Origin: Eledone cirrhosa
Lineage: Eukaryota
Reading direction: 5' to 3'
Length of the DNA: 64,000 nucleotides
Assembly: GCA_964016885.1 (NCBI GenBank)
Contig: OZ024754.1
Span: 35,030,001-35,094,000, forward strand
In this document: positions 34,577-56,800 of the stretch, piece by piece
How positions within the stretch are numbered: position 1 is the first letter of the stretch
Layout of the letters: every line of letters starts with the position of its first letter
Program-made: the position numbers and the translations under genes
The notes under the pieces: model-generated
What the model was told of the DNA's origin: nothing
Databases searched by the model: none
The model's input: only the letters and a program-made list of their open reading frames with translations

Positions 34577-34774
34577 ACAAAGAGGGTGTGGTAAGATACC
34601 AGATGAACCATAACGTACCACAGTACTCAATACTTAGGGTAGTAGAGGGGGTAATAGGAAAAGAATCAGGACCCCGACGGCTGAGCTCTGGCTGTTTCGA
34701 GAGCTAGATCCAAACTGGATCTAGCTGTCGAAATGGTCAAGGCTCAGCCATCGGGGTCTTAATTCTTTTCCTAT
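34577..34774 (-). mobile_element. PLE-type terminus with fold-back inverted repeat (59-bp arms 34654-34712 / 34716-34774) containing the 3' half of a hammerhead
   Basis: Arms are reverse complements around loop AAC. The + arm reads GAA-ATGGT-loop-GCCAT-C (stem III and AUC). Unpaired ~77-nt tail with TTGAGTACT on the minus strand (34622-34630). (TA)n on both sides. Confidence 0.75.
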
Positions 34775-34777
34775 ATA

Positions 34778-35571
34778 TATATAATACAATATGTTGAAAA
34801 GATAAAACACTAGAGAGAGAGATAGTGCGCCATCAATCAAACATTTGGTTCATCAGCGTGAGTAAGGCTATTCATTTCAGACAACTCTAAGATTGATGGC
34901 GCACTATCTATCTCTCTAGTGTGTTATCTTTCCAACATATTGTATTATATAGAGCTCGGGATTCCTTCTCCTTTGAACACATTATTGACAGGGAATAGTG
35001 AGAGCCTATGGCTCCGTTAATTTATCGTGATATTTTGCTCCTTATAACAGTCTTTCCTCTCTCTCTCTGTTTGGTTGAGCACACTTCTCTGAGTGGTTTG
35101 GGTTGCTCTTTCTAGCAGCTCATCCCTCAGAGGCCACTGGTTACTGCCCTAGGCACGCTGTGAATTCTCTCTCCCACGTGTGGCTGGACGGTCGCTTTAG
35201 ATTCTTTTAGAGTTGTCTGAAATGTATGGCCTTACACACGCTGATGAACCATGGGCTAATCATTTCTGTCAACAACTTATTGGCGAAACAGATCTCTTTG
35301 GATTTGTACGTGTGTGTTCGATAGTTATCGAGGTATGTATTTACACTTTAATTTATACTTTTAATTATTGTGTGTCTTCTCTGCCTTCCATGGGCTATAG
35401 ATTACATACACTTGTGGTTTTTCCCTGTTTGACTGATGGCACACTATCTCTCTCTCTAGTGTGTCACCTTTTCAACATATTGAATTATAGAGCTCGGGAT
35501 TCCTTCTCCTTTGAGCACATTACTGACAGGGAATAGCGAGAGTCTATGGCTCCGTTAATTTATTGTGATAT
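34778..35571 (+). mobile_element. PLE pseudo-LTR or retrozyme-like unit: inverted copy plus partial tandem direct repeat (540-bp period)
   Basis: 34891-35033 is repeated directly at 35431-35571. 34778-34838 is the inverse of 34891-34951. 34847-34890 is the inverse of 35207-35250. Tail motif TTGAGCAC at 35511. Confidence 0.8.
35234..35315 (+). ncRNA. Type I hammerhead ribozyme fold
   Basis: Stem I ACACACG/CGTGTGT; core CTGATGA at 35241; stem II CCA/TGG with an A-C closing mismatch; GAAA at 35285; stem III ACAGATC/GATTTGT; predicted cleavage triplet GUA ending at 35308. Confidence 0.8.
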
Positions 35572-36150
35572 ATATCATCATCTCATCATCATCATCATCT
35601 TCGTTTAACGTCCATATTCCATGCTTGCATGGGTTTGGACGGGAGTTTTCCCACTATATATATATTATCAGTACAGATTAAAGTTTAAGCAAAGAATTTC
35701 TGCTTTCACTCAATATATATATATATGTGTGTACATGTATATATGAATAGAAAAGAAGGAAATATTAAGACAATATAATGGAAACAGAGAAATATGTTAT
35801 GATAGAAAGGAATATAGAATTAGTATAGAGATATGAGGTTTGATTCCTCATAGCGGCTGATGGTAACTTCTTGTTTTTCCATCTTTAAGGGTTTTTCCCT
35901 TCTTTTATAAGCTATTTTATAGCACCTCCATGCATGAGTACATCATTTTTTTATAGAATTAGTTGTATTTTAACAAATTAAAATATTTAAAAAAAAAAAA
36001 AAATGCAGACAGAAATAAAATTACAACCAAATAAATAAATAAAATAAATAAAATAAATAAAATAAATAAAGATAATTTTCCCAAGAATATCTAACAAAGA
36101 AAACAAAGAAAAAAACAACAACAAATAACCAAGTAAAAAAAATGATTAAA

Positions 36151-36612
36151 GTAGTAGAAGTAGTTGTAGTAGTAGTGGTGGTAATACTAGTAGTAGTAGT
36201 GGTAGTAGTTGTAATAGTTGTAGTATTAGTGGTAGTAGTAGTAGTAGTAGTAATATTAGTTGTAGTAGTAGTTGTAGTAGTGGTGGTAGTAGTAGTAGTT
36301 GTAGTAGTGGTGGTAGTAGTAGTAGTTATAGTAGTGGAAGTAGTAGTTGTAGTAGTGGTAGTAGTAGCAGTAGCTGTTGTAGTAGTGGTGGTAATACTAG
36401 TAGTAGTAGTGGTAGTAGTTGTAGAAGCGGTTGTTGTAGTATTAGTGGTAGTAGTAGCTTCAGTAGTAGTAGTAGTTATAGTAGTAGCAGTGGTAGTGGA
36501 AGTAGTAGTAGTAGTAGTAGTTATAGTAGTAGCAGTGGTAGTAGTGGTAGTAGCTGTAGCAGTATTAGTGGTAGTAGTAGTAGTTATAATAGTAGCAGTA
36601 GATGTTGTAGTA
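36151..36612. repeat. Degenerate (GTA)n trinucleotide repeat
   Basis: GTA/GTG/GTT/ATA triplets; the source of the poly-Val and poly-Thr ORFs. Confidence 0.9.
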
Positions 36613-53461: not shown

Positions 53462-55671
53462 ATGTACAAGCATGTGTTTTTAGCAGACATTTAAACCTTA
53501 CTGCAAAAATGTTAATTTATACTTATATATGTCTATATATATATATATCTGTGTATTTATACTTATATATGTCTATATATATATATATATATATATATAT
53601 ATATATATATATATATCTGTGTATATATACTTATATATGTCTATATATATATATATATATATATATATATATATATATATATATATATATATATATATAT
53701 ATATATATATATATATATATATCTGTGTATATATACTTATATATGTCTATATATATATATATATCTGTGTATATATACTTATATCAGTGTATAAATACTT
53801 ACATTTATAATTCTAGTAATAAAATTCTAATGTTTCTAATAAAAAGCATAAAACAATGATAAGAAATGTTATTATCTAAGACATCTGTTCATTGCAGATG
53901 GACAATTCCAGATCTATTCCTTCCTTTTCACCAAATGTCTTCCTAACATATTACCTATTTTCTTCTCAGAGATACATGGTAATGTTTTTTTTGTGTTTTT
54001 TTAAACCACCAGTATGAGCAGTGATAGATATTACTAAATAGATAGGGGTATATTGATTAAGACAGATAAATAGGCAGACATAGATAGATAGATTGAGATA
54101 GAGAGAGATAGAGAGAGAGAGAGAGGGAAAGAAAGAGAGGGGGGGGGAGATAGAGAGATAGGATAGTGTGTCAGTTATGATTGTTATTTTAACAATTTAA
54201 TTTGAATACTTGTTCAGGTGGTAGGTGTATGTATGCTTGTAGAATACACACAGTGTACCTGGGATATCCATGTGTGCATGTGTTTGTGTTTGTGTGTGTG
54301 TGTGTGTGTGTGTGTGTGTGTTTGTAATTTCAAGCAAAGATAAAAAACAACAACAACTAAAATGAAAACAAAACAAATTTCTCATAAACACAACAACTGC
54401 CATTACATAACCTTTTTTCAAACATATATGAAGGTTATTCATATTGGTCAGCTATAACAATAACAAAATCAACATTTAAAAAAACAACAACAGTAATTAG
54501 ACACACACACACACACACGCACACACACCCATGCACACACACACATCACTGTACCAATGGTTTTTAAATCATTTAAGAGAGAGCAGGCAGTTATCAGGTT
54601 GATGAACAATAAAGGAGAGAGAGAGAGAGAGAGAGAGAGAGAGAGAGAGAGAGAGAGAGAGAGAGAGAGAGTGATATATATATATATAGATATATATACA
54701 CATTCATATATGTATATACATATATATATATATATATATATATATATATATATATATATATATATATATACACATATATATACATATATATATATATACA
54801 CATATATATATACACATATATATATATACACATATATATATACACATATATATAAATATATATATATATACATATATATATATATATACATATATATACA
54901 TATATATATATACATACATATATATACATATATATATATACATACATATATATATATATATATATATATATACATATATATATATATATACATATATATA
55001 CATATATATATATACATACATATATATATATATATATACATATATATATATACACATATACACACATATATATATACATATATATATATATATATATATA
55101 TATATATATATAAATTGATAGATTTAACGATATATATATATATATATTTATATATATATATATATATATAAAGAGAGCGAGAGAGAGATGAGAGAGAGAG
55201 AAATGGGAGAGAGAGAGATAGAGAGATAGATGAGAGAGAGAGATGAGAGAGAGAGATAGATGAGAGAGAGAGATGGGAGAGAGAGAGAGATGGGAGAGAG
55301 AGAAAGGGAAAACATATGTCAGGTATTAAAATTGATTGCAAGGGTTAACATTAACGTGGAAAAATAGGTAACAATTTCCTAGAGTGGACTTTTACCTCAA
55401 GTACCGTGTAATATCCCCCTCCATCTCCACCTCATCCAACTCCTTATTATTGTGGTCACATGGTTTGTGTACATTGCTGATACCTCTATCATCATCATTA
55501 CTATTACTATTATTATTATTATTATTATTAAAGGAGACACGTATACAATGACTTACACAGTAAATCTTTTTAGTGTATAGTTTGAATAATCTTTAATAGA
55601 TAATTATATCTAAGTATGTATGAATTTCATTTGATATCATCAAATATCTAATGAGAAACTCTTGGTCACTT

Positions 55672-56115
55672 GGATATACACACATAGGAACATATATACA
55701 TACATACTGGCATATCATGGGTGTGGGCACATAGATATACATACATAGGAACATATATACATACATACTGGCATATCATGGGTGTGGGCACATAATTATA
55801 CATACATAGGAACATATATACATACTGGCATATCATGGGTGTGGGCATATATATATATACACACATAGGAACATATATACATACTGGCATATCATGGGTG
55901 TGGGCATATATATATATACACACATAGGAACATATATACATACTGGCATATCATGGGTGTGGGCATATATATATATACACACATAGGAACATATATACAT
56001 ACATACTGGCATATCCTGGGTGTGGGTACATAATTATACACACATAGGAACATATATACATACATACATACTGGCATATCCTGGGTATGGGCACATAGAT
56101 ATACATACATAGGCA
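55672..56115. repeat. Minisatellite, about 8 copies of a 51-59-bp unit (CATAGGAACATATATACATACTGGCATATCATGGGTGTGGGCA...)
   Basis: Tandem copies that decay rightwards. Confidence 0.92.
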
Positions 56116-56602
56116 CATATACACACATACATACATATAGGCACAAGGGTATGAGCACATGGATATACACACACAGGTATATATATGCACACGCATATAC
56201 TTACAAGCACATGGGTACATACACACATATATATACATACATATATATATATATATATATATATATATATATATATATATATATATATACATATATATAC
56301 ATATATATATATATATATACACATATATATGATGTATTCCATAATTATAACTGATCAATATAAATAACAGTTAAGACATACACATACATACAAACATACA
56401 CATATATACATACATAATGCATATATACATTTATATGCATACATACATATTCATATATCCATATATATGCATACATACATACATACACACATATATATAT
56501 ATATATATATATATATATATATATATATATATATATATATATATATATATATATATATATAGATACATAAACACACATATATATATATATATATATATAT
56601 AT

Positions 56603-56800
56603 ACGTTATTCCGGGTTGAATCGGAGGTAACCACAGTAAGTAAGGTACTCAATACATAGCAGAGTATAACAGTTTTAATATAGATGAGATTCTACAGGAC
56701 TAGAACTGTTTCATTCATTAGAAATCATCAGGAATCTCAGAGATTCCTGATGATTTCTAATGAATGAAACAGTTCTAGTCCTGTAGAATCTCATCTATAT
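56603..56800 (-). mobile_element. PLE-type terminus with a perfect 61-bp-arm palindrome (56678-56738 / 56740-56800)
   Basis: Perfect arms, 1-nt centre. Unpaired ~75-nt tail with TTGAGTACC on the minus strand (56644-56652). (TA)n flanks. Confidence 0.85.
56740..56792 (+). ncRNA. Type I hammerhead ribozyme fold; mirror copy at 56685-56739 on the minus strand
   Basis: Stem I GAGATTC/GAATCTC; CTGATGA at 56747; weak stem II TTC(TAAT)GAA with a U-U closing pair; GAAA at 56766; stem III ACAG/CTGT; predicted cleavage GUA ending at 56785. Confidence 0.75.

Follow-up and report, generated by a model that had tools for sequence, protein, structure and literature searches.

Hairpin insertions of Penelope-like elements in (TA)n repeats of Eledone cirrhosa and a candidate mechanism for their formation

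The origin of the inverted repeats of Penelope-like elements (PLEs), and of the palindromes at their junctions, is named as open in the accessible parts of PMC8557442 and PMC3846280. The former, in the text available, characterizes a Hydra clade by a C-terminal GIY-YIG endonuclease, DKT and R-W motifs, CxCx5C, CxxC and CxH without CCHH, a type I hammerhead ribozyme and (TA)n targets; it gives Penelope-13_HM with a 5'-truncated inverted copy and includes one cephalopod family. The latter, in the portion available, presents a PLE unit with head-to-head inverted pseudo-long terminal repeats (pseudo-LTRs), a tail on one side and junction palindromes. The sole in vitro study, on Poseidon PAc (PMC11167929), ends in its accessible text before the joining step, so that the joining of its two products is not followed. 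Here we analyse a 64,000-nucleotide (nt) stretch of the Eledone cirrhosa genome (hereafter the window; 3.0-Gb assembly GCA_964016885.1, contig OZ024754.1, positions 35,030,001 to 35,094,000), in which an earlier note, made from the letters alone, had described five hairpin-forming elements in (TA)n. The architecture is already published in the three sources cited, as far as they are accessible; what we report are new families that belong to an established clade and follow its published layout, together with a testable refinement of the mechanism.

Judged by protein motifs, the elements are almost certainly Penelope-like, with the motifs of the Hydra clade. The centres of their hairpins likely correspond to the start of a capped RNA. 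We consider it probable that both nicked strands of the (TA)n target prime complementary DNAs (cDNAs), which would run off the RNA at its capped 5' end and then pair with each other head to head. A literature search that reached few subscription papers returned no article centring PLE palindromes on a capped start or describing a Hydra tail hairpin.

The elements, their families and coding partners

A 35-bp satellite fills the first 28.6 kb of the window, and the remainder is rich in TA repeats. A hairpin scan recovered the palindromes of elements 1, 3, 4 and 5 plus one at 48781-48917, and with arm alignment it placed all five elements where the earlier note had put them. Their inverted repeats are real, as the arm matches listed below indicate; the inventory was incomplete, since a sixth hairpin (48691-48917) and a non-palindromic inverted copy (39253-39431) had been overlooked. 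Families F1 to F6 are those of elements 1 to 6, and the checked layout is as follows.

34577-34653, minus strand: tail of element 1 (F1), 77-80 nt; its tail hairpin is decayed in this copy
34654-34712 and 34716-34774: arms of element 1, matching at 50/59 positions
34716: stop of the tailed arm of element 1, the F1 initiator-like base, within the loop of hammerhead stem II
34730-34757, plus strand: 3' half of a type I hammerhead in element 1 (GAAA, stem III, decayed cleavage triplet, 3' strand of stem I)
34780-34890, minus strand: untailed inverted arm of element 2, with an internal deletion joining unit positions 83-146 to 321-365
34891-35571, plus strand: tailed arm of element 2, 681 nt, equal to 1.26 copies of a 539-nt non-coding tandem unit (F2, retrozyme-like)
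34891-35033: direct partial tandem of element 2
35234-35315, plus strand: F2 type I hammerhead fold in element 2, with an A-C mismatch at the stem II base and a predicted cut after 35308
35490-35571, plus strand: tail of element 2
39253-39431: extra F6 insertion, a long untailed arm joined to an inverted tail stub, the untailed arm exceeding the tailed arm
46447-46533, minus strand: tail of element 3 (F3), hairpin motif at about 46529-46499
46534-46702 and 46703-46872: arms of element 3, 169/170 matching
46701-46704: ATAT at the centre of element 3, common to both arms; first four bases of the predicted RNA
46764-46834 (plus strand) and 46642-46572 (minus strand): hammerheads of element 3
47047-47124, minus strand: tail of element 4 (F4), its outermost 7 nt lost in this copy
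47125-47284 and 47299-47458: arms of element 4, 155/160 matching; the untailed arm is about 6 nt longer and begins at the F4 hotspot
47228-47173, minus strand: hammerhead of element 4; the plus-strand copy is damaged
48691-48917: element 6 (F6), a tail of about 86 nt and 67-nt arms (64/67 matching), centred on an initiator-like TTAGTT
56603-56677, minus strand: tail of element 5 (F5), carrying the hairpin motif
56678-56738 and 56740-56800: arms of element 5, 61/61 matching
56737 and 56741: arm stops of element 5, the predicted start base, each with an extra G:C pair (56738, 56740), plus one filler base
56741-56791, plus strand: hammerhead of element 5, with a mirror copy

The tails measured 68-95 nt, varying with how the TA overlap is counted; the earlier note had given 75-90 nt. 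A full hammerhead in four elements and a 3' half in the remaining one had also been reported, and we find type I folds in elements 2-5 and the 3' half in element 1. Within 28601-64000, a type I descriptor returned six folds, every one of them in element 2, in the left arm of element 4 or in one or other arm of elements 3 and 5 (both arms of each being represented), well above the shuffled control (mean 0.01 over 100 shuffles). A stricter descriptor retained elements 3 and 4 only, because elements 2 and 5 carry a mismatch at the stem II base. Among the 150 of 157 Rfam matches listed there was no hammerhead, only microRNA-like matches to palindromes and TA repeats, and minimum-energy folding did not recover the hammerhead or the tail hairpin in every family; both structures rest on pattern and base pairing. 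Longer relatives of F1 possess the 5' half, with a core that is non-canonical in 19/19 matches (TTGATAA in 16), and therefore the F1 hammerhead is probably inactive. No hammerhead core was found in F6.

The families are abundant, with 3310 candidates for F1, 3305 for F2, and 11401, 2135 and 3434 exact pattern matches for F3, F4 and F5; other exact patterns from elements 3 and 5 gave 2205 and 2222 matches and 0 in the control. The idea of a mechanism recurring genome-wide, which the note had proposed, is supported. Its suggestion that five elements in 22 kb are unusually dense did not survive a count of F1-F6 insertions in the flanks of 145 loci chosen for another family, from which the duplicates L050 (=L049) and L138 (=L137) and three loci overlapping the window were dropped. 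These flanks hold 57 insertions of the six families, one per 8 kb, and five in 22 kb is thus ordinary for TA-rich neighbourhoods. The families are distinct in sequence, as had been stated, except that their tails have a hairpin motif in common.

Fourteen long stretches were taken for full-length structure. Complete copies consist of a 5' pseudo-LTR with tail, a reverse transcriptase (RT) gene with C-terminal GIY-YIG, and an untailed 3' pseudo-LTR (L155 for F3, L157-L159 for F4, L162 for F5); therefore, the tail is 5' leader sequence and not the RNA 3' end. The RT and GIY-YIG genes that extension of the families had been expected to reveal are accordingly linked to F3, F4 and F5, each with both domains, of PLE type, in one open reading frame (ORF). 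In L155 this is an open frame of 775 codons (775 amino acids), and the F4 and F5 genes are broken but complete. F1 lies downstream of a decayed GIY-YIG gene in 2 of 25 long copies (L171, L185), and F2 is a non-coding tandem unit with a period of 539 nt and no long ORF. The idea of a PLE or retrozyme origin thus holds for four families as PLE pseudo-LTRs and for F2 as a tandem unit; the snap-back completion attached to it fares worse, as discussed below. The partner genes are RT/GIY-YIG and not those of DNA transposons with terminal inverted repeats, which the note had named as a refutation.

The proteins of F3, F4 and F5 have DKT and RxRW, with I or R, not K, as the third residue, and the C-terminal endonuclease. 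The CxCx5C linker, CxxC and CxH are present and CCHH is absent, the set being complete in F3 and F5, while the F4 copy has S for the third linker Cys. Insertion into (TA)n likewise agrees with the Hydra clade, and by eye the proteins match Hydra-1_Amil as given in the accessible part of the PMC8557442 supplement. Further PLE features are pseudo-LTRs from partial tandems, an inverted 5'-truncated copy, a one-ended tail and a predicted type I hammerhead in the pseudo-LTR (a fold in F2-F5, although with a non-canonical core in F1 and none found in F6). A Pfam search gave only a weak GIY-YIG match in one of six proteins (PF01541, E 0.0013, below the cut-off), and homologues carry PF26215. Relative to PMC8557442, as far as available, the tails are long (68-95 nt versus 30-40 bp for PLEs generally) and the units large (about 4 kb, with long 3' untranslated regions, versus less than 3 kb).

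Other assignments were rejected: the Neptune clade by motif check (neither the CX2-5CxxC linker nor CCHH was found), Naiad/Chlamys PLEs by the C-terminal, not N-terminal, endonuclease, and a miniature inverted-repeat transposable element (MITE) or DNA transposon by the one-sided tail, variable junctions and RT partner.

F2 resembles the animal non-LTR retrozymes of PMC7229834, in its accessible text, in being a non-coding tandem unit with one predicted type I hammerhead each. Its 539 nt exceed the 170-400 nt given there and lie within the 51-972 bp range in the available part of bioRxiv 10.64898/2026.07.22.740005; unlike those retrozymes, F2 carries PLE-type tail ends. A retrozyme-like array derived from an autonomous family lies at G000:C1:83679725-83691723, where twelve F5 units follow one another head to tail at a spacing of about 1.08 kb; every unit has a tail and a start site.

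Among other observations on the coding partners, about 75 residues rich in Asn, Pro and Ser separate the RT from the endonuclease in the F3 protein (L155:1753-4077), and the F4 protein has Thr/Pro/Arg-rich inserts; N-rich inserts are known in Adineta Penelope, according to the part of PMC3846280 available. GIY-YIG genes of other PLE types, with two core cysteines, occur in flanking sequence (L141:2-901, L130, L026 and L139); several PLE clades share these TA-rich sites. In the flanks of L171 and L027 we found a sister family of F1 with its own tailed hairpins and a different centre, often adjoining F1 or F4 copies.

Outer ends, inner stop base and tail hairpin

The outer ends of the insertions are fixed, and any target-site duplications are masked by the (TA)n sequence. 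In samples of 30 loci per family, the untailed arm ended at a constant position from the tail end (F1 78, F2 83, F3 88, F4 82, F5 64 or 77), and raw DNA reads from three runs contain TA-ended loose ends at both F3 outer termini. Across L121-L150, the two alternative untailed ends of F5 lie 11-13 nt apart, giving three outer ends in that family.

The inner ends of the arms also cluster: at 133-148 in 29/30 tailed arms of F1 (selected for a length of at least 136), at 258-261 in F3, at 252-258 in F4 and at 135-136 in F5. To examine larger numbers, the first 100 listed genome-wide exact-pattern matches per family were counted by hand. In F3, 56 arms read through the inner position and 44 do not; 42 of these 44 begin at the same A, and just 2 of the other 57 arms break within the next ten bases. 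Among the 44 are 15 arms of perfect palindromes annealed via ATAT; an extra G is found on 13 arms, 3 more are partners of such a G, 3 run directly into (TA)n, and 10 fit none of these classes. In F5, 36 arms begin at +1 to +4, and in F4, 48 stop at the hotspot, where the ATAT of the start itself usually forms the joint with (TA)n. A total of 697 loci have the 32-nt centre of element 3 in identical form. Moreover, the arm lengths in the window (59, 169, 160, 61 and 67 nt) approximate the distances from start to internal end in the families (about 62, 170, 174, 59 and 70 nt).

In each of the five families with a hotspot, the sequence at the stop is YY|ANW (TT|AGT, TC|ATA, TC|ATA, CC|AGA, TT|AGT), which fits the initiator consensus YYANWYY. 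In F5, TATAAATA lies 30 nt upstream of the stop base (-30). An extra G, where the genomic base is C, is present in 13 of 18 informative F3 arms (p = 4e-7 at a G frequency of 0.17); a stricter count without three ambiguous arms gives 10/15 (p = 8e-4 at a G frequency of 0.25). Seven of 13 F5 arms beginning at +1 have it as well. In L1 insertions of full length, such a G is the mark of the mRNA cap, as reported in the accessible part of PMC11702581, and the available text of PMC2377424 places an internal promoter in the Penelope pseudo-LTR. TATA and initiator motifs in the pseudo-LTR of the PLE of PMC3846280, as far as that source is accessible, are a further likeness to the families described here.

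A tail hairpin, RCTC-N9-22-GAGY-RC, is common to the family tails, with a compensatory change in F2. It was matched 224 times in 150 loci versus 8 times in reversed sequence, most matches falling in the selected families; beyond F1-F5 it occurs in 14 sequence types, at a distance of 38-66 nt from a TA run, and a few of these may be chance. Throughout F1-F5 this small hairpin stands behind the untailed end, at a distance of 4-17 nt, and a second copy lies 6-8 nt behind the tail end in F3 (+7, L154), F4 (+8, L157 and L159) and F2 (+6, with a 34-nt loop read by eye). The spacing of this hairpin pair likely sets the tail length. Neither a start-site hotspot nor a tail hairpin was found in the accessible part of the Hydra-clade account of PMC8557442. 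The motif offers a practical handle for annotating further families.

Formation of the hairpins

In the mechanism that we consider probable, the endonuclease would nick both strands of the (TA)n target, and the RT would recognize the small RNA hairpin (RCUC...GAGY) and start a few bases 5' of it. There would be two starts, one at the tail end and one at the internal site, each using 1-5 nt of TA overlap, and the tail would be the spacing between the two signals. Because the genomic 3' pseudo-LTR has no tail, the signals would exist only where a pseudo-LTR precedes a tail, that is, at the RNA 5' end. Synthesis of either cDNA would then reach the cap after 60-175 nt (plus the tail), often copying the cap as an extra C, and the two cDNA ends, held together by microhomology or filler, would prime each other's extension, producing a palindrome centred on the start site. 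If one end joined the target instead, a single-armed stump would result, and longer copies could arise only if the cDNA jumped to the 3' pseudo-LTR or the template were a read-through RNA. The hammerhead would be a passenger in the hairpin-forming step; its cleavage seems unneeded because the predicted cuts lie away from the hotspots, the F1 core is altered and none was found in F6.

This scheme has partial precedents. In vitro, the Poseidon RT nicks both target strands and extends them, starting at two internal sites between which the tail lies, with products limited by the RNA 5' end and hammerhead cleavage dispensable (PMC11167929, in the text available). Poseidon belongs to a different clade, and its starts show no target homology there, whereas each start here has a TA overlap of 1-5 nt. 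L1 twin priming, as far as the accessible part of PMC11702581 describes it, is similar in that a second target end primes a second cDNA and an extra G appears at the RNA 5' end; the L1 cDNAs, however, cover different parts of the RNA, and those proposed here would cover the same part from fixed sites.

A more specific version, a double strong-stop, we put forward tentatively, as somewhat less than an even prospect. Here, the duplicated hairpin would set starts about 80 nt apart, an RT dimer would proceed to the cap, and the cDNAs would join each other, join the target or jump, the jump to the 3' pseudo-LTR being likened to retroviral strand transfer. As a relative of telomerase, the RT could also slip back at the template end and add repeats. 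In two F3 loci, L102 and L107, the junction contains two to three repeats of the terminal eight bases of the predicted RNA 5' end together with a C, which resembles telomerase-style slip-back and re-extension.

Several points weigh against the two-strand account. The start and the cap are deduced from DNA; a look-up of 46300-47600, which covers elements 3 and 4, listed no RNA run containing this stretch, a result that counts neither way. The pattern samples come from one chromosome and detect only arms that reach +3 to +5; the patterns also drop a quarter of the sites (C at the first base), removing perfect F4 hairpins, and 12 of the F5 read-through matches are one tandem array. Over half of the arms read through the hotspot, for which a jump or a read-through RNA is invoked. 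No inner hotspot was seen in 30 loci of F2, no clear TATA box stands at -30 in F3, F4 or F1, and the extra G is weak in F4 (3/48) and mixed in F1. The second hairpin is missing from the sole readable F5 copy and imperfect in L155, one of two F3 copies. Finally, the two arms of F3 and F5 insertions share their subfamily variant in 12/12 cases, although a mixed pool should have yielded about 18 discordant arms. In these young families both arms would come from one source, be it one RNA copied twice, sibling RNAs or, in part, snap-back.

The same agreement between arms, together with the perfect zero-loop centres exemplified by the 697 loci and a shorter untailed arm at L102, L005, L012, L018, L021 and L121, speaks for the snap-back favoured in the earlier note, in which one cDNA from the tail end folds, copies itself and stops short at TAT. 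A folded-back cDNA cannot, however, produce an untailed arm longer than the tailed one, and this is what 8/120 F2-F5 loci have by at least 20 nt (L094, L106, L120, L019, L030, L134, L084 and L086), as does the window insertion at 39253-39431; therefore, snap-back is unsupported. Tail stubs directly abut start-site arms in 2/44 F3 and 5/36 F5 cases and in 97 raw reads of run X22. Single-armed copies end at the same base as the hairpin arms, full-length copies end at the internal site without any hairpin, and at certain junctions, such as those of element 5 and C1:14380015, both arms carry the extra G. Of 21 F1 loci, 11 have a non-CpG variant in one arm only and 2 have it in both, as if two RNAs had been used. 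As a general route, snap-back is already contradicted, and we regard it as unlikely overall.

A different possibility retains priming from both strands and takes the inner hotspot for an RT pause or an RNA cut site instead of a transcription start. The positions of the F5 hotspot, which borders hammerhead stem I on its 5' side, and of the F1 hotspot, in the stem II loop, would suit it, but the predicted cuts fall 3' of the hotspots, which in F3 and F4 lie about 60-70 nt upstream of the fold, and the condition of the hammerhead in F1 and F6 does not favour it either. An initiator-like context and an extra G would be unexpected at a pause or a 5'-OH end, and we hold this reading to be quite improbable. 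For Adineta Penelope, self-priming on an antisense transcript was proposed, and the accessible part of PMC3846280 reports that inverted junctions carry palindromes and that promoter motifs face either way. Very improbable as the source of the present hairpins, it does not predict two fixed outer ends matching the in vitro start sites on sense RNA, nor would it lead one to expect an extra G to the sense side of the start base or arms from the start site fused to tail stubs. In the present families, the lengths of the arms and the extra G indicate two primed cDNAs.

That each family is a palindromic non-autonomous unit amplified whole, like a MITE or a short interspersed element, would account for the identical F3 centres and the thousands of copies, yet it is scarcely credible, as junctions vary around one base between copies, copies with an identical centre can differ in their subfamily variants (L091 and L100 versus L111), and the flanking genes are RT/GIY-YIG, not transposases. 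Sequencing or assembly fold-back might be suspected from the near-perfect elements 3 and 5, and the read check concerns the F3 family, not the window's own junctions. An artefact can nevertheless be practically dismissed: the arms differ in elements 1, 4 and 6, the ends are family-specific, and, of the raw-read evidence that the note had asked for, a strand-switch joint of F3 was recovered at the same place in three raw Illumina DNA runs (12, 6 and 4 reads, with 1-2 start places per run).

As repeats, the elements are ordinary. The value of two-strand priming from fixed sites up to a capped start is that it predicts, to the base, where the RNA starts, where the two primings occur and which hairpin acts as the signal, so that it is directly testable, and the genome offers thousands of dated products across several families plus one family whose gene has the open frame of 775 codons.

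Neighbouring sequences of the window

The 35-bp satellite extends over 4-28578 with about 807 copies at 94% match and contains a 200-base N gap at 7512-7711. At 31504-32698, on the minus strand, lie broken RT fragments of long interspersed element (LINE) type, with similar copies in L014, L015 and L100. A short untailed F6 fragment (35658-35709) stands between TA runs just to the right of element 2. Furthermore, a 166-bp direct duplication (98%) occupies 37543-37874, and a 59-bp minisatellite with 7.6 copies is located at 55673-56134.

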